The translations under genes and the position numbers were made by a program. From an uncultured Nitrososphaerota archaeon (GTDB taxonomy: Archaea > Korarchaeota > Korarchaeia > Korarchaeales > Korarchaeaceae): a stretch of 22,982 nt of DNA. Shown piece after piece: positions 1,424-18,766 of this stretch; position 1 is the first letter of the stretch; every line of letters begins with the position of its first letter. Location: the NCBI GenBank assembly GCA_964480775.1, contig CAYZRF010000023.1:3450-26431 (forward strand). The letters are read 5' to 3'. The notes under the pieces were generated by a model. That model worked only from the letters and a program-made list of their open reading frames with translations. It was not told the origin of the DNA and searched no databases.

Positions 1424-1711
1424 CTAGAACTTATCATCGTAGTAGGGCAAGAAGGGATTTCTTTTCAGTGATTTTTGCCTTTCCTTTAAAGCTGCTTCAG
1501 CAGATAACCGCTTGTTTCGTTCACACCACTCGCAATATATTATATACCCTTTCCCACCGCAGTACGGGCATTTATCCTTAGAAGTGAGTCTGAGACTTCC
1601 GACAGGGCTATTACACACGTAACAAGGTATAATTTTCGCTTCTCTGCCGCATTTTGGACAAATAACTTTCTTTGGAGCCCTATCGAGGCTCTTCGGACTT
1701 GACTTTGGCAT
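1424..1711 (-). CDS. Small zinc-finger protein with four CxxC pairs, one in the DnaJ-type CxxCxGxG form
   Basis: The motifs are CPKCGREA, CYVC, CPYCGGKG and CEWC, followed by a basic helix and a YYDDKF tail. The ATG at 1711 is preceded by GAGGG with a 9-nt spacer. The ORF track extends to a TTG at 1720. The gene overlaps the 3' end of the 1016-aa gene by 32 nt in another frame. Confidence 0.6.
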   Translation of the reverse strand: MPKSSPKSLDRAPKKVICPKCGREAKIIPCYVCNSPVGSLRLTSKDKCPYCGGKGYIIYCEWCERNKRLSAEAALKERQKSLKRNPFLPYYDDKF

Positions 1712-4700
1712 CAGGACCAACCCTCTGACGTAACCTAAGCCATATCTGGTCGTTACCCAAGACGAACTCCCTATTTCTAAAGGTGTGTTTTGGCGAAGGT
1801 ACTGTTATCGGTGATCCATCACTCTTTTTACCTACTTTGGTTCCTTCCGGTTTTACATCAAAGGCATTTAGGATCTGACCGTCCTCTCTCCAAGTTATCA
1901 GCGCACGATACCCCTCTTTTGTAGTGTACTCAAGGTTCCACTGCGTTCCTAATTTATCACCCCCGAAATCAGGGTGCTTGTGAAAATCTGCCTTAAACAA
2001 GACAGTATCTGGGTGATCCAAGGCCTCTCTTGCTAATCCAACTATAAGCTCGTTGAACATCCTAGACGCCTCTTGGAAGGCTTTTTCATTAGCCCTTTTT
2101 TCTGCTAGCATGTCTACTAAACGGTCACGTTCGAGATTACTTAAACGCTCTTTTTCTTTGCTAATCTCCGCGTTTAACTTATCTTTAGACAATTCTTCTG
2201 GTTTTATTCCATTATTTTCTAGTCTTTCCTTAGCCATCCTCTCTGCAAGTTCATCCCTTACGGACTCGATATCCTTATCTCTAAGCTCTCTGAGTTCTCT
2301 CTCTTTAAACTCAGCTCTTAAGCTTTTTTCTTTATCAACAATTCTCTCGTACGTTCTTTCGACTCCATTTATCTTCGCAAAATCTCTAGCGTGTTCCTTA
2401 TCCCCATAAAGGTGCTGCCTTAGTGGTGTATCTTTCCCTCTAGACATTTTTAAGCCCGGTTTTTCAACATCCATTTTTGAGATAATCTCCTTTCCTCTTC
2501 TAACCTCTGGAGTATCAAAATGATCAGAGAACCACTTTTCAACCTCTTTATCTAACCTACGAAGTGTTTCACGGTCTGCAGGCCCATGTCTTTCTAAATA
2601 TGAGTCAAGCCTTCTTTTGAACTCTTGTGACTTTATTGCTTGCTTTATGTCTCCTTCATGCACGAATGAAAGCGATCTATTAGCTTCAGCTTCTTTTCCA
2701 TCAAAATACTCATTTTTGTAATATTCGAAAAGCCTATCATGCTTTCCTGTGGGAGCTTCTATCTGTTTAGAACGAGGTCCTGGGATAGTGTCCGCAAGCT
2801 CCGTGGGAACTGGAATGGTGTCCGCGCTTTCAATGTCGACAACAGTGTCCGCTTCCTTTGATACCTGCGATGGAACTTCTCTCTCTGTAGGAACATCTTT
2901 GATTGGTTTTCCAGTCTCGGCTTTTGTCTCAGGCACCATAGCTCCCTCTTCTCTGACCTTTACACTTTCTTTAGGAACGGTAACTTCTCTTCTGATCCTA
3001 CCTATTGCCTCAACGCCTTTTGTTGCCCCAATTTTGACCGCAGAAGTTGCTACAGACATCCCTGTCCCAACTACGAAGTCAGAAATTGTGTGTGCGAACA
3101 TTCTTGCAGCTATGTCTATTTCATCGCGCGTCTCCGCCCCCTTTGCAATGGCGTACGCCTCGCTGAAACTCTTAACAAGATTTGCAGACCACAAGGTAGA
3201 TCCAGCTTCACCTGTAAGGCTCATGAGAATCGTTTCTGCAGGATTTTTGAACATATTGTGAAGTATATCCTTAATAGCCTTTGGCATGTACTTTTCTGAT
3301 CTAGCTAAAGCTGCATCTACCTTATCATATCCTGGGGTATGTTCCCTTGGCATCAAATCCTTCTCCTTAGGAACCCTAATGACCAAGAACCGCTTTCCCT
3401 TTTCCTTTGCTTCCTTTACGACCTTCGTTAAGGCTTCATGACGGTGAGGTGTTCTTTCTTTTGGAGGAAGAAAAATAGAGAATTTTTTCTCCTTTATTAC
3501 TTCGTTCCCGGACATGCGCCAACCATGCCTTTCAAGATCTGAGCGAGTGACAAATTCTCCTTCTAACTTGCCTGTTCTGGCCGAATACACCTTACCAGTT
3601 TCCATGTCCACTACATGCGTTCCTTCTGGTAAGTTGGTAGATGGTCTATCAGTCCCTTCGGTCCCTCTCCAAATGGTTTGGACATCCCCCAAGATGTTTC
3701 CATCTTTATCTAGAACAAAAAGCTTCTCCTTAACTGATAACAAGTAAATAGAATCCTTTGCTCCTTTGAGCTCTGGCCTTATCTTTTCGAGCCTCTCCAC
3801 ATCTTTTCTAGCCTTTTCATGTTCAGATTCCTTAGTGACAACTTCCCATGGTTTTTTGCGTTCAACAGGCTTTTCTAATTCTTTATCAACTACTTTAACT
3901 TCTCCCCAAGTTCTTATCCTATCAGCTCTATCTTTTGGAGCCTGTGACCTATCTCCTGCCCTGCTTACCTCGGATTCCTCTTTTACACCGCTTTCAACCT
4001 TTTCGATCAAGGAATTGAGCTTTTGAACGATTTCATCAACCCATTTTTCTCCTGTCCCCTCTTTCCACTTCCAGTCCTGTCCTACATTCCAACCCTCCTT
4101 AGACAACTCATCCTCATCAGTTTTTGATTCATTAGCTTCCATATTCTCCTGTTTTTGAGCTGATTCTTCCCCCTCAGCTTCAGATTTGGCATCAGCATCT
4201 TTGTCCGAAATCATTACTTCTTCTGGTCGTGTATCATCAATCAGAGCCTTTTGCGATTCGGCGTCCCCAAGAGGTATGAATTCCTTGTCTATGTCCGTCT
4301 CAGGAGGTCCAGTGGTACTTTCATAAAGGTCCTGCATAGGGTCACTTGGAATTTCGGACTGAAGGTCATCTATAGCTTCTCTAACTTCTGGCGAGGAGAA
4401 TGAACTTTCTTCTTGGCCTAATTGATCTAGTGCCTCTGCCGCACCTGACATTATTTCTTCTACAGCTTCTTCAGCATAGCCCTCTATGTCTTCCACGGAT
4501 TCTTGGCTTTGTCCGCTTTCCTTTTCATTTTCCTTCTCTTCTTCCTCCGAATCCTCTGATTGCTCCTCGCTCTGAGACTCTTGACTCTCAGTACTTTCAC
4601 TTTGACCGTAGGACGTGGCGCCTTCTGTCTGTTGAGCAGCATACTGCTCTTCTATCTGCTGATTTGATTGCATTTCTGAGGCTTTATCCTGAGCATCACC

Positions 4701-4730
4701 GCCTCCTGACCCGTAGGAACCTTCTGACAA
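1680..4730 (-). CDS. Large (1016 aa) highly acidic hypothetical protein with a disordered S/E/Q/D-rich N-terminus, a central globular part, a K/E/R coiled-coil region and a beta-rich C-terminal domain
   Basis: This is an uninterrupted 3 kb ORF. The TTG start at 4730 is preceded by GAGGT (4738-4742) with a 7-nt spacer, and a TTTTTAA TATA-like box lies at 4772-4778. The next in-frame ATG is codon 20. I found no signal peptide, clear TM helix or recognisable catalytic motif. Confidence 0.75.
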   Translation of the reverse strand: MSEGSYGSGGGDAQDKASEMQSNQQIEEQYAAQQTEGATSYGQSESTESQESQSEEQSEDSEEEEKENEKESGQSQESVEDIEGYAEEAVEEIMSGAAEALDQLGQEESSFSSPEVREAIDDLQSEIPSDPMQDLYESTTGPPETDIDKEFIPLGDAESQKALIDDTRPEEVMISDKDADAKSEAEGEESAQKQENMEANESKTDEDELSKEGWNVGQDWKWKEGTGEKWVDEIVQKLNSLIEKVESGVKEESEVSRAGDRSQAPKDRADRIRTWGEVKVVDKELEKPVERKKPWEVVTKESEHEKARKDVERLEKIRPELKGAKDSIYLLSVKEKLFVLDKDGNILGDVQTIWRGTEGTDRPSTNLPEGTHVVDMETGKVYSARTGKLEGEFVTRSDLERHGWRMSGNEVIKEKKFSIFLPPKERTPHRHEALTKVVKEAKEKGKRFLVIRVPKEKDLMPREHTPGYDKVDAALARSEKYMPKAIKDILHNMFKNPAETILMSLTGEAGSTLWSANLVKSFSEAYAIAKGAETRDEIDIAARMFAHTISDFVVGTGMSVATSAVKIGATKGVEAIGRIRREVTVPKESVKVREEGAMVPETKAETGKPIKDVPTEREVPSQVSKEADTVVDIESADTIPVPTELADTIPGPRSKQIEAPTGKHDRLFEYYKNEYFDGKEAEANRSLSFVHEGDIKQAIKSQEFKRRLDSYLERHGPADRETLRRLDKEVEKWFSDHFDTPEVRRGKEIISKMDVEKPGLKMSRGKDTPLRQHLYGDKEHARDFAKINGVERTYERIVDKEKSLRAEFKERELRELRDKDIESVRDELAERMAKERLENNGIKPEELSKDKLNAEISKEKERLSNLERDRLVDMLAEKRANEKAFQEASRMFNELIVGLAREALDHPDTVLFKADFHKHPDFGGDKLGTQWNLEYTTKEGYRALITWREDGQILNAFDVKPEGTKVGKKSDGSPITVPSPKHTFRNREFVLGNDQIWLRLRQRVGPDAKVKSEEPR
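2787..2852 (-). repeat. Three imperfect 27-30 bp in-frame tandem repeats inside the 1016-aa gene, encoding (E/S/L)ADT(V/I)(V/P)..
   Basis: The word gtgtccgc recurs at 2788-2795, 2818-2825 and 2845-2852 on the plus strand. The peptide reads EADTVVDIE-SADTIPVPTE-LADTIPGP. Confidence 0.6.
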
Positions 4731-5022
4731 AAAAATTACCTCACTTAATCTCTAAGAATTGAATTTTCTACTTAAAAAGGGTTTGATGGGTTCTAGATGG
4801 GCTTAGTTCAAAAAGGTTTCAAAGGCACCCATTTATCAAAAGCTAAGCAATGACACAAATTAGATGAAAAGACAGGTAACCATCGGAATTTATGAGAAGA
4901 GATACATGTAGATAGGTCATATAAGAAAAAACTGTTGAGTCTAAGCCACGTTAATTTTTCAAGCACTACTCTCTTTCACAAATATAGATCAAGATTTTAT
5001 AGTAATTAAGCCGAAATGGAGT
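4731..5022. promoter_or_regulatory. Divergent promoter region between the acidic-protein gene (-) and the membrane-protein/ATPase operon (+)
   Basis: This is a 292-bp AT-rich spacer. A TATA-like TTTTATAG (4995-5002) lies about 25 nt before ATG 5023, suggesting a leaderless transcript. A TTTTTAA box on the minus strand (4772-4778) lies about 45 nt before TTG 4730 and is followed by a ribosome-binding site. Direct repeats are GATGGG x2 (4785-4790, 4796-4801) and AAAAAGG(G)TTT x2 (4774-4784, 4810-4819). Confidence 0.45.
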
Positions 5023-5847
5023 ATGAAAGGAACTCGGCTCATTGTTGGCATTCCCCTACTCTGCCTTGGACTGTTCTTGCTAACAGCAGGAGGAAAGCAC
5101 TACTTCTTATTTATACCCATAACAAACGCCATGATAGGGCTTTTATTCAGCCTCTTGGGGATAGTTCTCATATTGCAAGCACGTCGGAATTCTGGAGGCT
5201 TTTCCAGGGCAAGAACTGGAGGGTTCAAAGGGATAGTAAAAAACCTAAGAGTTGAGGGGGATCTGACTAATTTTTGGCTTGAACTCCCCGAAAAGAGGGG
5301 AGAATACGTCCCTGTTGAGGCTCGTGTTGCTGGACTAGAGCTTAAAGAGGGAGATGTTGTGTGGGTGAAAGGCTCCCCCGGGAACGACGGGATACTGCGG
5401 ACAACTGAGATACGTAATTTATCAAGGGCATTAGGTAAGAAAAGAGAAGATATTCTTATCGAAGAAGACAGAAAAGGGAACATTGAGTTTACGGGCATTG
5501 TCTTAGGAGAGCCCTATGAGTTAGACGTTAAACGAACGATGGGTCAAGAACTGAAGAAGAAGATAGGATTTAGAGTGCAGCGAGTTGATGCAGAGGGAAA
5601 TCCCATAGATGTAGTTGAAGTTGAAGTAAAGGAAGGAGACTTCAAAGGAATGGTCTATGATAGAGATTCTGTCTGGATAAAAGGCAAATGGACCAAGGAT
5701 GGGAGGGTTAGAGCAAAAATTGCAAAGAACCTGACAACCAGGTCGATAATAACGCGTCGCAGTAGAAAGAAGTTAATAGCAGGAATTGTTCTTATCGTTG
5801 CTTTAGTGATCTTTTTCCTGGTTTTTGCTCCAAGCATACAGATATGA
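5023..5847 (+). CDS. Membrane protein (TM-TM-[repeat1]-[repeat2]-TM) with a tandem OB-fold-like cytoplasmic duplication
   Basis: There are two N-terminal hydrophobic helices (about aa 6-24 and 34-52) and one C-terminal helix (about aa 250-270). Positive charges (QARRNSGGFSRAR and TRRSRKK) flank the central part, which predicts that it is cytoplasmic. The two repeats share F.GIV ... (V/L)KEGD ... VW(V/I)KG ... DG..R...I.NL(S/T). Confidence 0.75.
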   Translation: MKGTRLIVGIPLLCLGLFLLTAGGKHYFLFIPITNAMIGLLFSLLGIVLILQARRNSGGFSRARTGGFKGIVKNLRVEGDLTNFWLELPEKRGEYVPVEARVAGLELKEGDVVWVKGSPGNDGILRTTEIRNLSRALGKKREDILIEEDRKGNIEFTGIVLGEPYELDVKRTMGQELKKKIGFRVQRVDAEGNPIDVVEVEVKEGDFKGMVYDRDSVWIKGKWTKDGRVRAKIAKNLTTRSIITRRSRKKLIAGIVLIVALVIFFLVFAPSIQI

Positions 5848-5861
5848 GATAGGGGTTCCAG

Positions 5862-8800
5862 ATGGCCTTCTCCACTAGACACATAGATTACATAGAACGA
5901 AACTATTTAGACTCGTTAAATGGAAGAGTAGAAGAACCTGGGCTGTTTGAGACTTTGAAAACAGAAGATCTTCGTTTTTTGAAGGTAATAGGCATAACTC
6001 GTCACTGGGAAGATATTGAAGGAAGAATTAGGGCAGCGAGAAGCCTCATGGAGGACATTCTTGCAGGTCTTTCTGGTGAGAGAATACCTCTAATCTTCCT
6101 CATCGTGGGTGAACCAACGAGAATCAACCTGTACGTGGGAACCTACAAAAAGAAAAGTGGAACGGCAGAGGTAAAGGGACATCTTACAGCTGAAGACAAC
6201 CTACAAACCCTAATTGCTGCTTTGGAGAGCGGCTATCCAGGAATAGAGACGAAGGTAATAGAATCTGCTAAGGTAAGGGAGTCTTTGAAAGAATTCAAGT
6301 ACGCTGGCTTACTGACTGGAACTCCGACGATAAAGATAGAGGCTGAAAAAAGGGACGTCGAACAAATGGAAAGGATGATAAGAGGACTCTATCGCTCGCA
6401 TTGGGCTTATTTGATAATTGCAATCCCTGTTGAACAAAGAGAAATCGTCAGGCTTTACAATACAGCCCTTAATGAACTACGCCTTATTGTAGAAGCAGAA
6501 ACAGTCCAAAGAACTAGAGCGGACCTGGGAAACCCTATTGCAAGGATGTACATGGAGTTACTTGAAGCCTACATGGAAAAACTAATTGCTGGTAAGACTC
6601 AAGGCATGTGGAACGTTGCAGTTTACTTCATGTCGGTGGATCCTAAGGTATTCAGCAGGGCTAAAGCAATAATAGGGTCAGTATTTAGCGGTAAAGAGTC
6701 AATTCCCGATCCAATAAGGATTCTAGATTGTCACAGATTCATCGAAGAGGTAAAGCAGTTTGGAGTGATTACCACCCCAGGTCCTCCTCCTCCGGGTCAG
6801 ATCGAACACAAGTACAAATATCTGAGCCTTCTTAGTTCTTCAGAACTCTCGACTTTTGTTTACTTGCCTCTTCAGGAGATGCCAGGTTACTTCGTAAGAG
6901 ATTACGCAAGGTTTGATGTTGCCTCAAAGATAATCGATGACGATGATGCGGTAGAAATAGGAGAAGTGATTGACCAAGGTCGTCGAATGGGCACGCAATA
7001 CCAAGTTAGGATAAAGGACCTGAATAAGCACGGCCTTATAGTAGGTATTACTGGAAGCGGTAAGACAAACACGTGTTTTCATATAATCAGACAGCTGTGG
7101 AAGAAAGGAATACCTTTCCTCGTGATAGAACCAGCTAAAACGGAATACAGAAAGTTGTTACAAAGTGAGGAACTGAAGGATGACTTACAGGTGTTTACTT
7201 TAGGTGATGACGCAACTTCTCCCTTCAGACTAAATCCCTTCGAGATCCTGCCAGGAGTGCCTGTTCAAATGCACATTGATTTGCTAAAATCCGTGTTTAA
7301 CGCTAGTTTCGTTATGTACGCGCCAATGCCATACGTTCTTGAACAATGCATTCACGAAATTTACGAAGACAAGGGTTGGAACTTAGTGACAAATGATAAT
7401 GAAAGAGGGAGGCATCAGAACGCCCATCCAACCCTGACAGACCTATACAGGAAAATAGATGAGTTCGTAGACCGGCTGGGATACGAACAGAAGGTAACGA
7501 TGGACGTGAAAGCGGCCTTGAAGACTAGGATCAATAATCTCAGGGTAGGTAGCAAAGGCCTGATGCTGGATACGAGGAAGTCCATCCCGATCGAGGAGAT
7601 TCTCAAGAAACCAACGATAATTGAACTCGAAAAAATAGGAGATGACGATGAAAAAGCCTTCGTAATGGGTCTGCTCCTGATGTTCATATACGAACACTAC
7701 CTTGCCCAAGGAGTCCGCGAAGGAGGTAGCTTGAAGCATATTACCGTAATAGAGGAAGCCCATAGGCTCCTGAAGAACGTGTCCACAGAAAACTTCGCTG
7801 AGGCCTCCAACATAAGAGGAAAGGCAGTAGAAACCTTCTGTAACGTTTTGTCAGAGATAAGAGCCTATGGTGAGGGCTTCTTGATACTTGAACAGATACC
7901 TTCGAAGCTAGCTCCAGATGCTATAAAGAACACCAGCCTGAAGATAGTACACCGAGTCGTTTCCAGAGACGATCGCTACCTGGTTGGCGGATCTATGAAT
8001 CTGGATAAGGAAGAAGAAAGGAAAATAGCATCCTTACGGGTTGGAGAGGCCGCAGTACACTCAGCAGGCGACGATAGGGCACTTTTAGTGAAAGTGCCCT
8101 ACGTGAAAATACCTTCTGAACTCATGAAAAAGGAGGAGGAAGATCAGAAGTTAAAGAAAGCGATGAAAGCTTTTCATCAAAGATTTAGAGAAGTTTTCCT
8201 ACCTTTCAAGGCTTGTTCAGCCTATTGTAATGACGTTTGCAGGTTCCATAAGCTTGCGCAGAGGGTCGTTGAGGATCCTAAGTTTGAAGAGGTCTTTTCT
8301 ATGTACGTTCTATCTGGCGTAATCAACTGGAAAGCCATCTTCGTAGGGTATCCTCTAATACAACAAAGCATAGAAGAAAGGAAGAAAGGCTTGGATCTGG
8401 ACGTAGGCTTCACGAAATGCGTTATAATACAGGCAGCTGACAGATATTTTGAGAAAAGGGGTCAACAGTACGGGTGGAAGTACGAGGACGTTGAGGAAAT
8501 GAAGGACAGTTTCATAAAAATACTCCAAACCATTGCAAGCGCCTATCCTCAAAGCGATATAGAGGAAGGAGAAAGAGAAACGATAGCTAAAGAGATAAAA
8601 ACTCTTCAAAAGAAGTACAAAGAGTTAAGCAGGCGACAATATGATCCTTTCTTCGGGTGTGAAGAGACTTGCACCGACGGACTTTGCCTTTACAGGTATG
8701 GCGTTGAACCCTTGCTTTATGATGAAAACCTGAGTAGACAGTTCTCAGGCACAATCAGCAGGTTTAAGGGAAACGAAATGTGGGAGAGACTTGGTAGAGT

Positions 8801-8969
8801 TTGCCAGATAGCTGCAAGAAGGGTTGTTTCAGAAGCCGCAGGTCCTGAGGCCAAGAGAAGGGCCAGCATCTGCTTTGCTATACAAAAAAGCTTTACAAAC
8901 CCTTACTTTGACGCGTTTTTGAGAGAAAAGATAGTAACTAACATATTAAGGGTATTCCATAAGGAATAG
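5862..8969 (+). CDS. HerA/FtsK-superfamily (DUF87-like) P-loop ATPase of 1035 aa, with a unique N-terminal domain of about 380 aa and a Cys-rich C-terminal domain of about 280 aa
   Basis: Walker A is LIVGITGSGKTNT (GITGSGKT at 7044-7067). Walker B is ITVIEEAHRLL (VIEEAH at 7746-7763). The HerA-like segments VIEPAKTEYRKL, FRLNPFEIL and SEIRAYGEGFLILEQIPSKL (7851-7880 onward) are present. AGGGG lies upstream of the ATG, and the gene starts 14 nt after the membrane-protein gene, so the two look like an operon. Confidence 0.9.
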   Translation: MAFSTRHIDYIERNYLDSLNGRVEEPGLFETLKTEDLRFLKVIGITRHWEDIEGRIRAARSLMEDILAGLSGERIPLIFLIVGEPTRINLYVGTYKKKSGTAEVKGHLTAEDNLQTLIAALESGYPGIETKVIESAKVRESLKEFKYAGLLTGTPTIKIEAEKRDVEQMERMIRGLYRSHWAYLIIAIPVEQREIVRLYNTALNELRLIVEAETVQRTRADLGNPIARMYMELLEAYMEKLIAGKTQGMWNVAVYFMSVDPKVFSRAKAIIGSVFSGKESIPDPIRILDCHRFIEEVKQFGVITTPGPPPPGQIEHKYKYLSLLSSSELSTFVYLPLQEMPGYFVRDYARFDVASKIIDDDDAVEIGEVIDQGRRMGTQYQVRIKDLNKHGLIVGITGSGKTNTCFHIIRQLWKKGIPFLVIEPAKTEYRKLLQSEELKDDLQVFTLGDDATSPFRLNPFEILPGVPVQMHIDLLKSVFNASFVMYAPMPYVLEQCIHEIYEDKGWNLVTNDNERGRHQNAHPTLTDLYRKIDEFVDRLGYEQKVTMDVKAALKTRINNLRVGSKGLMLDTRKSIPIEEILKKPTIIELEKIGDDDEKAFVMGLLLMFIYEHYLAQGVREGGSLKHITVIEEAHRLLKNVSTENFAEASNIRGKAVETFCNVLSEIRAYGEGFLILEQIPSKLAPDAIKNTSLKIVHRVVSRDDRYLVGGSMNLDKEEERKIASLRVGEAAVHSAGDDRALLVKVPYVKIPSELMKKEEEDQKLKKAMKAFHQRFREVFLPFKACSAYCNDVCRFHKLAQRVVEDPKFEEVFSMYVLSGVINWKAIFVGYPLIQQSIEERKKGLDLDVGFTKCVIIQAADRYFEKRGQQYGWKYEDVEEMKDSFIKILQTIASAYPQSDIEEGERETIAKEIKTLQKKYKELSRRQYDPFFGCEETCTDGLCLYRYGVEPLLYDENLSRQFSGTISRFKGNEMWERLGRVCQIAARRVVSEAAGPEAKRRASICFAIQKSFTNPYFDAFLREKIVTNILRVFHKE

Positions 8970-12237: not shown

Positions 12238-12430
12238 TTGTATCTCCTCTTCTCATCTTTTTTGATGTCTTAAGTTGTTTTTAAAGTTCTTATGTAAATA
12301 CCTATGTCTGATAAACAGAGGAATGCTTGTTTTCCGCCCTACTCATGGGGCCAATACCACTGCACTCTCTCTTTTTGACCTAATAGATTGCATTAAAAAT
12401 CTAAAGAAGACTTTTTATTGGTGGCTCATT

Positions 12431-13141
12431 TTGCCTAGCCCTTCAGCAAGGGGAAGAAGTAGCGAAAGAATAGCGAGAGGCATTTTAGAGAAATTAGGTT
12501 ACAAAATCCTAGAAACCAATAAGGCCATTATCTTAGGTAAATCAGAAGCGTTTGAAGTCGATATATTAGCTCAAGGGCCAGAAGGCGAAAAATACTGCGT
12601 AGAAGTTAAAGCCGGTAAGGCAGGAGTTTCCGATATTCGAAAGGTGTATGCTGATAGCGAGATCTTAGGCTACAAACCTCTCTTGGTTTGTAAAGGGTAT
12701 GCCGATGAAGCGGCAGGAGAAGTAGCTGAAAAACTTGGCGTTAAAGTGATTGAACTCAGCGAGTATCATCTCCTCCTGGATCCTGAAGAACTAGAGATTA
12801 TTGTAAGAAATGCCGTTCAAGAGGTTCTAACTGAATATGGCTTTTATCCACTTCCTGCCTGGGAAGAAATAAAGGAGAGAGATTGGGAAATAATAGAGGC
12901 TATAGCCAACTCAAAAAGCTTTGAAGAAGCTGCTCAGAGCCTTGGGATGAGCACAAAAGATCTGGGACATAAAATAGGTGCTCTTCGTGAGATTGGTGTC
13001 TTTCCAACAAAAGGACAAAGCTTTTCAAACCTCAAGAAACATGCTCAACAGCTAGTTCACCGATATTCCATTATAAGAAAGCTAGAAAGAATAGAAAAGA
13101 CACTAAACATAATTGAAAAATTCCTTTCAGAAAAGAAATAG
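12431..13141 (+). CDS. Hjc/YraN-like PD-(D/E)xK nuclease-fold domain fused to a C-terminal helix-turn-helix region
   Basis: The N-terminal domain reads GRSSERIARGILEKLGYKILE ... FEVDILAQ ... YCVEVKAGK, the D...E.K nuclease-fold signature. The C-terminal part reads SFEEAAQSLGMSTKDLGHKIGALREIG and is HTH-like. The start is uncertain. The TTG at 12431 has GGTGG 6 nt upstream, an ATG lies at 12323, and the ORF is open from a TTG at 12275. Confidence 0.65.
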   Translation: MPSPSARGRSSERIARGILEKLGYKILETNKAIILGKSEAFEVDILAQGPEGEKYCVEVKAGKAGVSDIRKVYADSEILGYKPLLVCKGYADEAAGEVAEKLGVKVIELSEYHLLLDPEELEIIVRNAVQEVLTEYGFYPLPAWEEIKERDWEIIEAIANSKSFEEAAQSLGMSTKDLGHKIGALREIGVFPTKGQSFSNLKKHAQQLVHRYSIIRKLERIEKTLNIIEKFLSEKK

Positions 13142-18301: not shown

Positions 18302-18766
18302 ATGTCAGAAGCAATAAAGGAGACATCGAAGAGGATAACTGAGTTACTTGAAAAGATGAAATTGAAGTTCTTCATGGGAAACGATGTTAGGGAATTCATT
18401 GTTCCTTTTCTAATAGATACTTCTAAAGGAAAAGTCAAGACGAATGTGTTGATAAGAATCGCAGGCGACTGGATCCTAACGGTTGCTCCCTTGATTGACA
18501 TAGGTTCTATTCCTAGCAATGATGACAGGCTAAAGCTATTTGAAAGGTTGCTTATCGACAACTATTATTTGAAAGAGGTAACATTCGGCCTGTCTAAAGA
18601 AGGAACGATAGTTGTTCATGCAGAAACGCACAAGGATGCTTTAACCCTTGAAAACTTCAGATCAGAATTTTTCAGTGTAGTATTTGGAGTGCAGCACTTC
18701 GCTGAAAAAATAATTCCTGAGTTCAAGAAATACAAAGAAAAGAGCCATTTGGAATACGTCTTTTGA
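18302..18766 (+). CDS. Hypothetical cytoplasmic protein (possibly a YbjN/secretion-chaperone-like alpha/beta fold)
   Basis: This is a clean ATG-initiated ORF with protein-like composition. The fold suggestion rests only on size and on a pattern of an N-terminal helix followed by beta strands. Confidence 0.55.
   Translation: MSEAIKETSKRITELLEKMKLKFFMGNDVREFIVPFLIDTSKGKVKTNVLIRIAGDWILTVAPLIDIGSIPSNDDRLKLFERLLIDNYYLKEVTFGLSKEGTIVVHAETHKDALTLENFRSEFFSVVFGVQHFAEKIIPEFKKYKEKSHLEYVF

Follow-up and report, generated by a model that had tools for sequence, protein, structure and literature searches.

Several described systems are built around an ATPase of the FtsK/HerA/VirB4 superfamily. The motor of type VII secretion is such an ATPase (EssC or EccC) at the cytoplasmic face of the membrane, and its substrates lack signal peptides. 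FHA domains occur in this machinery, and in T7SSb the FHA domain is on EssC. VirB4 of type IV secretion systems (T4SSs) is a soluble ATPase docked to small membrane proteins, and in the SIR2-HerA (Nezha) and DUF4297-HerA systems a hexameric ATPase of the HerA type is encoded beside toxic effectors. The archaeal Ced system of DNA import (CedA/A1/A2, CedB, and CedD/E) combines a HerA/VirB4-clade ATPase with membrane proteins (PMC11868833 and PMC9905601). For polymorphic toxins, a constant N terminus with a variable C terminus is the defining pattern (PMC3482391), and SUKH is their classic immunity superfamily (PMC3113570). Here we describe a cluster of four genes at positions 1424–8969 of a 22,982-nucleotide (nt) stretch of archaeal DNA (contig CAYZRF010000023.1 of assembly GCA_964480775.1), referred to below as the window. 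The cluster encodes a VirB4/HerA-like P-loop ATPase (the ATPase), a membrane protein (TM274), a large protein with an acidic N-terminal region (Acid1016), and a small zinc-finger protein (ZnF98). We give about an even chance to the reading that TM274, the ATPase, and Acid1016 are a divergent copy of a widespread three-part module that exports toxin-like effectors, with gene context suggesting the export itself.

Organization of the Locus

The four genes form two units that diverge from an AT-rich spacer of 292 bp (4731–5022), which has 32% GC as compared with about 42–44% around it and presumably holds promoters for both. On the plus strand, the gene for TM274 (5023–5847; 274 residues) is followed after 14 nt by that for the ATPase (5862–8969; 1035 residues); a TTTATA sequence at 4994–4999, inside the spacer, lies about 24–29 nt upstream of the TM274 ATG. 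On the minus strand, the gene for Acid1016 (1680–4730; 1016 residues) begins with TTG and has GAGGT 8–9 nt upstream of this start. ZnF98, also on the minus strand (1424–1720), has 98 residues from a TTG start or 95 from an in-frame ATG at 1711; with the ATG start, its first 32 nt are shared with the end of the Acid1016 gene. The original prediction, made from the sequence of the window, had described the four open reading frames (ORFs), the spacer, the divergent units, the gap, the overlap, the ATPase motifs, the three transmembrane segments and duplicated module of TM274, and four CxxC motifs in ZnF98, and all of these were confirmed.

The ATPase

The ATPase is conserved in sequence over its whole length in a 50-member family alignment. 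It comprises an α/β N-terminal domain (residues ~1–350), a core (residues ~355–750), and a helical C-terminal domain (residues ~755–1035). The motifs GITGSGKT, VIEEAH, and EIRAYGEGF..LEQIPS lie on invariant columns of the alignment, and the core residues include Walker A (Gly395–Thr402), Walker B (Glu631–His634), and Arg667/Gln678. Pfam DUF87 matches the protein (3.9e-12; 47 bits against a cut-off of 23.2), and Foldseek matches its AlphaFold2 model (predicted local distance difference test score, pLDDT, 86.7) to VirB4 and HerA with a probability of 1.00. DUF87, the invariant motifs, and the fold together place it in the HerA/FtsK/VirB4 superfamily, as originally predicted. The top structural match is TrwK/VirB4 of the R388 T4SS (E 1.6e-15). 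The target-normalized template-modeling score (TM-score) is 0.76 against the VirB4 C-terminal domain 4ag5 and 0.54, behind VirB4, against HerA 4d2i; the model also resembles HerA as it occurs in the SIR2-HerA and DUF4297-HerA complexes, with Foldseek E-values between about 1e-10 and 1e-8. Because global TM-scores to full-length VirB4 are low (0.22–0.33), the robust similarity is limited to the ATPase domain. The protein is presumably hexameric like its relatives. It falls in no characterized orthologous group, which agrees with the earlier expectation: the best NCBIfam matches fall far short of their thresholds, ser_rich_anae_1 scoring 152 bits where 650 are required and CedD 101 where 600 are. 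PADLOC gave weak partial matches to HerA, mad8, and DndH (1e-13 to 1e-14 for HerA and mad8) and no match for TM274, Acid1016, or ZnF98.

Four cysteines of the helical C-terminal domain, Cys933, Cys937, Cys942, and Cys1004 (window 8658–8675 and 8871–8873), are invariant in 50 of 50 sequences. A second set, comprising Cys785, Cys789, Cys793, and Cys853, is present in 33–35 of the 50 family members. The two sets suggest that the domain has one metal site or two, of the Zn or the Fe-S type; such sites would be unusual for HerA/VirB4 ATPases.

A database search returned 2498 homologous proteins at E <= 1e-3, many of them full-length (~1030 residues) and 40–72% identical to the query. Exact-sequence look-ups of the window ATPase and of the proteins P0122 and P0104 gave no record. 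Full-length homologs are present in Cyanobacteria (Trichocoleus, Moorena, Symploca, and Rivularia), in Chloroflexota (Ktedonobacter and Anaerolineales), and in Pirellulales, Aegiribacteria, Catalinimonas, Methanococcoides, and Bathyarchaeota, and homologs with 33–34% identity are encoded on plasmids of Embleya, Rhodococcus, and Streptomyces. The ATPase had been called an orphan, a description that has to be given up in view of these homologs and of the conserved and widespread pairing with a membrane partner that is described below.

The Membrane Partner

TM274 has hydrophobic segments near residues 1–25, 27–55, and 247–274, corresponding to two N-terminal transmembrane helices and one at the C terminus; the starts of these segments fall at about residues 1–7, 27–37, and 247–256. 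It carries tandem copies of one module (residues ~68–134 and ~156–240), detected as two domain matches of a hidden Markov model (HMM) at 1e-28 and 1e-45. Arg/Lys-rich stretches lie on both sides of the module region, and from these the positive-inside rule predicts that the modules are cytoplasmic, the location given in the original prediction. Pfam and NCBIfam searches with TM274 gave nothing usable, and word-indexed searches returned near relatives alone. Sub-threshold profile matches of the module, to DUF5666 in 9 of 26 cases, CcmE in 5 of 26, and OB_YrrC in 3 of 26, with others to Prot_ATP_ID_OB_C (the proteasomal ATPase OB domain), TOBE_2, and HAS-barrel, consistently suggest an OB-type barrel. 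For this reason we refer to the module as OB-like, and in TM274 it appears to be an OB-like β-barrel; a match to the single-stranded DNA-binding protein (SSB) structure 4gs3 is weak (E 0.017).

A family HMM, designated OB-TM, was built from TM274 and its BLAST-level relatives, and ORFs were called in 110 collected loci related to the ATPase. An OB-TM member lies at most 300 nt upstream of the ATPase gene on the same strand in 35 of the 82 loci with at least 500 nt of upstream DNA, and one is present anywhere in the locus in 52 of 101. Plasmids of Embleya and Rhodococcus have the pairing as well, their OB-TM members matching at E 4e-36 and 1.5e-30. A widespread conserved pair is thus formed by the ATPase and the OB-TM protein, and both the ATPase family and the pairing extend over Archaea, Cyanobacteria, Chloroflexota, Planctomycetota, and actinobacterial plasmids. 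In most OB-TM members a single module precedes one to four transmembrane helices, and TM274 is a tandem duplicate flanked by such helices. An N-terminal zinc-ribbon pattern is present in 20 of 52 OB-TM partners (~38%) as compared with about 4% of other ORFs, and 3 of 50 partners carry FHA/YscD-type cytoplasmic domains, as in secretion systems.

A different arrangement is seen in four loci from Ktedonobacter and its relatives (L009, L010, L012, and L015), which encode distant ATPases without an upstream OB-TM gene. Here the ATPase gene diverges from two to five genes for paralogous polytopic membrane proteins of 500–690 residues (~3.7–9.6 kb per locus), which may be an alternative membrane partner.

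Acid1016

Acid1016 has no signal peptide, transmembrane segment, or cysteine, and searches of Pfam, NCBIfam, and PADLOC gave no match. Residues 1–270 (3921–4730, minus strand) contain 79 Asp and Glu residues and 22 Lys and Arg residues (isoelectric point, pI, 4.05) and are of low complexity, with Ser, Gln, Glu, and Gly accounting for 49% of the region. Beyond residue 270 the pI is about 8.4, and the earlier characterization of the whole protein as very acidic applies to the N-terminal region and fails for the remainder. This region is a candidate targeting or unfolded leader sequence. Comparable charged, signal-less N termini are found on many of the proteins encoded downstream of ATPase homologs, and some of them are constant while the C terminus varies.

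Word-indexed searches with Acid1016 gave near relatives only. The sole close homolog, P0121 (76% identity), is encoded in locus L018 (GCA_027491465.1), where the genes diverge as they do here; its neighbors are a homolog of TM274 (78%) and the start of an ATPase with 93% identity. The remote relatives were found by a full HMMER scan with residues 260–1016, which yielded 16 proteins of modular structure. The central domain (residues ~300–700; 2631–3833, minus strand) recurs in P0128–P0136 and P0140, and P0132 combines it with another C terminus. The C-terminal, putatively toxin-type domain (residues ~745–1005; 1716–2498, minus strand) has the motifs KPG..RQHLxGD..H..DF, DTvlY.aDY, G.Q.N.EFT, GQILN.FD, and FRNR, and a coiled-coil hairpin of ~90 residues separates it into two parts. 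Among the invariant and near-invariant positions of its alignment are Arg32, His34, His41, Glu195, and Arg203 of the segment 740–1016, which by best estimate (a shift of 744) correspond to Arg776, His778, His785, Glu939, and Arg947 of Acid1016. Proteins that are otherwise unlike one another end in this domain. P0137, which has an N-terminal (Sec) signal peptide, carries it right after a canonical RHS core (..GARYYDSNLGRFTSIDP..NPYSYVANNPMNLIDPDG), and P0141 (190 residues) and P0143 (219 residues) consist of little else.

Outside the window and L018, the only hits to Acid1016 domains among the 1063 ORFs of the collected loci are L026:4006–6585, found with the central-domain profile (E 2.5e-18), and L027:4526–7960, found with the C-terminal-domain profile (E 4e-64). 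Both genes are directly downstream of ATPase homologs with 43% identity to the window ATPase, and an OB-TM gene is upstream in both loci. Because these relatives occupy that position, the linkage of Acid1016 to the ATPase is evolutionarily conserved. Acid1016 is a candidate exported effector, and its domain structure and linkage suggest a cargo of the polymorphic-toxin class with a toxin-type C-terminal domain.

The C-terminal domain was modeled by AlphaFold2 with high confidence (pLDDT 92; predicted TM-score 0.87), and structural searches with the model gave nothing significant in the PDB (best E 0.31) or BFVD (best E 0.2). Searches of Pfam and of PDB sequences also gave no match for this domain. 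Weak papain-like hits were set aside because the family alignment contains no invariant or near-invariant cysteine and Acid1016 has no cysteine at all.

Genes Adjoining the ATPase in Related Loci

The proteins encoded just downstream of ATPase homologs typically have no transmembrane segment or signal peptide, and many have an N terminus that is net acidic or highly charged and of low complexity. A Pfam scan was made of 106 such proteins, from the first three positions downstream of the ATPase homologs, with 140 other ORFs from the same loci as the control. Immunity families among the 106 are SUKH_6 (4 members), SMI1_KNR4 (4), and SUKH_5 (3), and the toxin families are Colicin-DNase, LHH, and WHH, with 3 members each; Pput2613 deaminase (2), Endonuclea_NS_2 (2), and CHAT (1) are also present. 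None of these toxin and immunity families reaches 3 members among the 140 control ORFs. Individual Pfam matches include a restriction-endonuclease-fold toxin of the CDI_toxin_EC869_like family (L005:13185; 4e-13), an EsaD/YeeF-type Endonuclea_NS_2 domain (L014:13273; 7e-26), a DUF6782/Tox-MPTase4 metallopeptidase (L016:6246), and a CHAT protease in L011. WXG and LXG domains are absent from the 25 families in the Pfam listing of the 106 proteins.

In four pairs of ATPase-linked proteins, from loci L005/L014, L092/L093, L099/L103, and L100/L103, the N-terminal 70–140 residues are kept and the C terminus is entirely different. With these pairs and the shuffled domains of the Acid1016 family, the linked proteins have the architecture of polymorphic toxins.

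Relaxase homologs were found in 2 of the 110 related loci and a type IV coupling protein (T4CP) in 1. In L107 (1745–17003), on plasmid pRoPD630_2 of Rhodococcus opacus PD630, the OB-TM/ATPase pair adjoins genes for MobC, a relaxase, and a T4CP, and in L110 (16254–17575) it adjoins a relaxase gene and NikA. MOB-suite classifies pRoPD630_2 as mobilizable only, and no recognized mating-pair apparatus was thus found on this plasmid, on which the pair could double as an unrecognized mating-pair ATPase.

Two other contexts were observed among the relatives. In L108 (13382–17774), on a JGI metagenome contig, the gene for an ATPase (P0020, 50% identical) is followed by a trio encoding a VWA protein, a PP2C phosphatase, and a Ser/Thr kinase. 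Genes for a NACHT/WD40 protein and a Tn7-like TniB/TniQ/transposase set flank the locus, whose cargo or regulatory setting differs from that of the toxin cassettes. In the archaeal-type relatives L019 (5286–5582 and 5589–7811) and L021 (5499–5690 and 5687–7630), a small protein of 63–98 residues precedes one of 647–740 residues. The small and large proteins of each locus have a common N-terminal EEAANxLE motif, and those of L019 also have a common MSNKE.. start. The pairs are reminiscent of a co-substrate or chaperone pair, with a motif that is confined to a subclade and not evident in Acid1016. The related string AANxLE, recognized by eye in L002, L004, L019, and L021, was rejected as a general targeting signal because it is limited to the subclade and is unconvincing in Acid1016.

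ZnF98 and the Flanking Genes

ZnF98 is a basic protein with CxxC motifs at residues 21, 33, 51, and 63, consistent with a double zinc ribbon, and all of its Pfam matches (Zn_ribbon_19, DZR, Zn_ribbon_3, and DUF7575) are below threshold. No homolog is present in any of the related loci. The window and L018 cease to be similar in DNA sequence at window position 1696, right where the Acid1016 gene ends, and L018 has fragments of an AAA-ATPase gene where the window has ZnF98. The four genes had been grouped as one candidate system and conservation of the neighborhood in other genomes had been named as its test; TM274, the ATPase, and Acid1016 are conserved together, and ZnF98 is not, leaving three of the four genes. 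Its membership in the module is unproven. An immunity function for ZnF98 was considered and is unsupported, since the gene is absent beside the 76%-identical P0121 and no ORF follows P0128 in L105. Three of the zinc-ribbon families that it matches (DZR, Zn_ribbon_3, and DUF7575) are fused to 13–15 of 50 OB-TM partners, and TM274 has no such fusion. Stand-alone zinc-ribbon neighbors are not enriched (4.9% as compared with 4.3%). ZnF98 could have a regulatory role or be no more than a neighbor; that it is an accessory zinc ribbon detached from the OB-TM protein is speculative. Cysteine-rich small genes are also found in L026 at the 3′ end of the effector gene, as ZnF98 is here. A convergent gene for a 75-residue zinc-ribbon protein (6597–6824, minus strand) and one for an HNH protein with zinc ribbons (6938–7588, plus strand) stand beside the Acid1016-like gene, and neither has evident sequence similarity to ZnF98.

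The genes that flank the cluster are ordinary and encode an MFS transporter, GNAT, transglutaminase-like, HAD, and PGA_cap proteins, an M19 dipeptidase, and MGMT-like, methyltransferase, deaminase, and formamidase proteins. The cluster has no distinct GC signature in the composition profile of the window. Two overlapping plus-strand ORFs in different frames, at 145–561 (with a GKLSDISGRKP-type motif) and 443–1360 (Pfam MFS_1, 2.5e-38), both appear to be parts of one MFS transporter and probably represent a frameshifted gene or a sequencing error. At 12275–13141 (plus strand) is a gene for a 288-residue protein with a weak match to UPF0102 (YraN-like endonuclease) and a helix-turn-helix that weakly matches the archaeal HVO_A0114 helix-turn-helix, in keeping with the archaeal origin of the window. 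The nearest named homologs of the ATPase suggest that the organism is probably a member of the Bathyarchaeota. The profile of CesT_Tir_1, which represents chaperones of type III secretion, scores 23.5 bits (below its cut-off of 27) on a 154-residue protein encoded at 18302–18766 (plus strand); this gene, a curious one for archaeal DNA, is ~9 kb from the ATPase and has no evident link to the cluster.

Proposed Function and Alternatives

The arrangement of these genes suggests the following mechanism. TM274 would be anchored in the membrane, with its cytoplasmic OB-like barrels docking the ATPase, and the ATPase ring, a presumed hexamer, would in this way be held at the membrane. A ring of OB barrels stacked on an ATPase ring would resemble, by analogy only, the substrate-entry architecture of proteasomal ATPases. 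The cargo, represented here by Acid1016, would be proteins that lack a signal peptide, begin with a charged and disordered region, and end in modular domains of the toxin type. The ATPase may engage the effector by its N-terminal region, in an unfolded or extended state, and, driven by ATP, feed the protein through a membrane conduit for export. Functionally, the route would be analogous to the export of LXG/WXG toxins by type VII secretion and of effectors by T4SSs. The observations comprise the arrangement of the genes, their homologies, the conserved ATPase/OB-TM pairing, the toxin and immunity domains of the neighbors, and the modularity of Acid1016; export itself, the contact between the ATPase and the OB-TM protein, the hexamer, a toxic action of the C-terminal domain of Acid1016, and the conduit are postulates of this scheme. 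A more general proposal, which we hold tentatively and judge somewhat more likely to be wrong than right, is that the OB-TM protein and the ~1030-residue ATPase are the core of an unrecognized secretion system of Archaea and many bacterial phyla that exports polymorphic toxins with charged, disordered leaders. The window would then hold an archaeal (probably Bathyarchaeia) version of the apparatus, and the toxin domain of its cargo would have a fold unmatched in the PDB and BFVD libraries searched.

Several observations weigh against export of toxins by such a module. An OB-TM partner was not detected in about half of the loci, mainly those with distant ATPases (31–37% identity), and a partner with three transmembrane segments is a small basis for a protein-conducting channel. 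A recognizable toxin or immunity domain is present in about 15 of the 106 downstream proteins and no more, and two relatives of the pair are beside relaxases. In the window itself, the Acid1016 gene is divergent from the ATPase gene and not downstream of it, and no signature of a mobile element or defense island was found in the flanks. No conserved immunity gene follows the genes for Acid1016, P0121, or P0128, so that the toxicity of the C-terminal domain is only putative.

The original prediction offered two options, a membrane-docked translocase with Acid1016 as its substrate or adaptor and a defense module scaffolded by HerA. The comparative context favors a protein translocase with Acid1016 as the substrate, and defense by a HerA scaffold is less likely. 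In an intracellular defense or abortive-infection system, an ATPase that senses invading DNA or is triggered by it would activate toxic effectors (nucleases, deaminases, or Acid1016) within the cell, and the membrane partner would merely localize the complex. The partial PADLOC matches to HerA and mad8, the similarity in fold to the HerA of the SIR2-HerA and DUF4297-HerA complexes, and the effector-like nucleases that adjoin the ATPase in relatives are compatible with such a role, and some relatives are found beside type I restriction-modification, HicAB, PIN, NACHT, and transposon genes. We nevertheless judge it unlikely. HerA_antiphage of NCBIfam scores 43 bits against a cut-off of 800, and the partner proteins SIR2 and DUF4297 are absent; the SUKH immunity genes and the toxins with constant N termini and variable C termini are hallmarks of exported polymorphic toxins and not of HerA defense. 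The C-terminal domain of Acid1016 also occurs on a Sec-secreted RHS protein (P0137), and the conserved partner is anchored in the membrane.

Transfer of DNA is a second alternative, in which the ATPase would be the analog of VirB4, TraB, or the Ced ATPase in a minimal translocation or conjugation-like apparatus, the OB module would bind single-stranded DNA at the membrane, and the large acidic proteins would be accessory or co-transferred. VirB4 is the top fold match of the ATPase, CedD (a DNA-import ATPase; PMC11868833) is the best named NCBIfam match after the serine-rich family, the OB module is weakly similar to SSB, and homologs are beside the mobilization genes of pRoPD630_2 and L110. 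The rarity of relaxase and T4CP genes among the related loci argues against this alternative, as does the window, in which homologs of relaxases, T4CPs, pilins, CedA, and VirB6 are lacking, and the recurrent toxin and immunity genes at the operon position would be left unexplained; we consider it improbable. The absence from the window of NurA, SIR2, DUF4297, relaxase, and pilin partners had been part of the original prediction and was upheld. According to a third alternative, the functional unit is limited to the ATPase and TM274, and Acid1016 and ZnF98 are chance neighbors at the spacer. ZnF98 may be such a neighbor, but for Acid1016 this is very improbable in our view. The divergent orientation is indeed atypical for the family, ZnF98 is not conserved, and Acid1016 has one close homolog, but its remote relatives are directly downstream of ATPase homologs at two independent loci, as the sole hits among the 1063 ORFs, and the trio of TM274, the ATPase, and Acid1016 is syntenic in L018.

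If toxin-like effectors are exported as proposed, the module would be a new export route for toxins and effectors in Archaea and Bacteria that uses a single VirB4/HerA-like ATPase and a minimal membrane partner, and it would give a function to thousands of proteins annotated as DUF87 or ATP-binding. Dedicated toxin-secretion machinery is barely known in Archaea, and inter-microbial conflict in this domain would thus be opened to experiment. Many unannotated toxin and immunity domains would be indicated, including the C-terminal domain of Acid1016 with its confident model and no PDB or BFVD match. Were the module instead a defense system, it would still be a new membrane-associated system of the HerA type.

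Comparison with Known Systems

No description of the module was found in the available portions of the literature compared, which covered polymorphic toxins (PMC3482391), SUKH (PMC3113570), the Aravind-laboratory studies of conflict systems (PMC7159879 and PMC8195603), archaeal dark matter (PMC6393860), an archaeal peptidoglycan hydrolase (PMC12352652), and Ced (PMC11868833); Makarova et al. 2019 (mBio) or Iyer et al. 2004 (NAR) may mention it. The module is apparently undescribed, and it may well, with substantial probability, merit the rank of a separate secretion system. As to its type, it would belong to export driven by an ATPase of the FtsK/HerA/VirB4 superfamily.

Type VII secretion resembles the module in its motor and in its signal-less substrates, among which are toxins with constant N termini and variable C termini and SUKH-type immunity (PMC3113570 and PMC3482391). 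The FHA domains of its machinery have a parallel in the 3 of 50 OB-TM partners that carry such domains. In contrast to the three ATPase domains of the type VII motor, the module ATPase has one, and it has no transmembrane segment; FtsK_SpoIIIE scores 14 bits on it against a cut-off of 24. No homologs of WXG100, EssB, EsaA, or EccB–E were found for the module, whose OB-TM partner has no known counterpart in type VII secretion and which is present in Archaea. These differences place the module outside type VII secretion.

The VirB4 proteins of T4SSs (TrwK of R388, PDB 8rtd and 7o42, and Thermoanaerobacter VirB4, PDB 4ag5) are the best structural matches of the module ATPase. Both are soluble, dock to small membrane proteins (as is proposed for the module), and are occasionally encoded beside relaxases. 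The module ATPase differs in its extra helical C-terminal domain with four invariant cysteines and in its low global TM-scores, and the profiles AAA_10 (14.2 against 27.5) and P-loop_TraG (20.9 against 25.8) are below their cut-offs. VirB3, VirB6, VirB8, and T4CP are missing from the window and from most loci, and the window has no relaxase; the module is accordingly not assigned to the T4SS or conjugation systems. The Ced system shares with the module an archaeal HerA/VirB4-clade ATPase and membrane proteins. The scores of CedD (100.9 against 600) and CedB (17.6 against 700) on the ATPase are nevertheless below cut-off, TM274 has no NCBIfam match, no CedA-like polytopic protein or Ups pilins were found, and the module family is mostly bacterial and toxin-linked.

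The SIR2-HerA and DUF4297-HerA systems have in common with the module an ATPase of similar fold that is encoded beside toxic effectors. The module is set apart from them by its membrane partner, immunity genes, and polymorphic-toxin architecture, by an ATPase that is about twice as long, by the low score of the anti-phage HerA profile (NF042943, 43 bits against 800), and by the lack of a SIR2 or DUF4297 partner. With HerA-NurA, finally, the module shares the DUF87/HerA ATPase core. HerA_Thermprot (39.9 against 800) and helicase_HerA (33.3 against 970) score below cut-off, and the neighboring genes encode MFS, GNAT, and transglutaminase proteins and not NurA, Mre11, or Rad50. The HAS-barrel N-domain of HerA is missing from the module ATPase, and it is tempting to speculate that the β-barrel is supplied in trans by the OB-TM partner.

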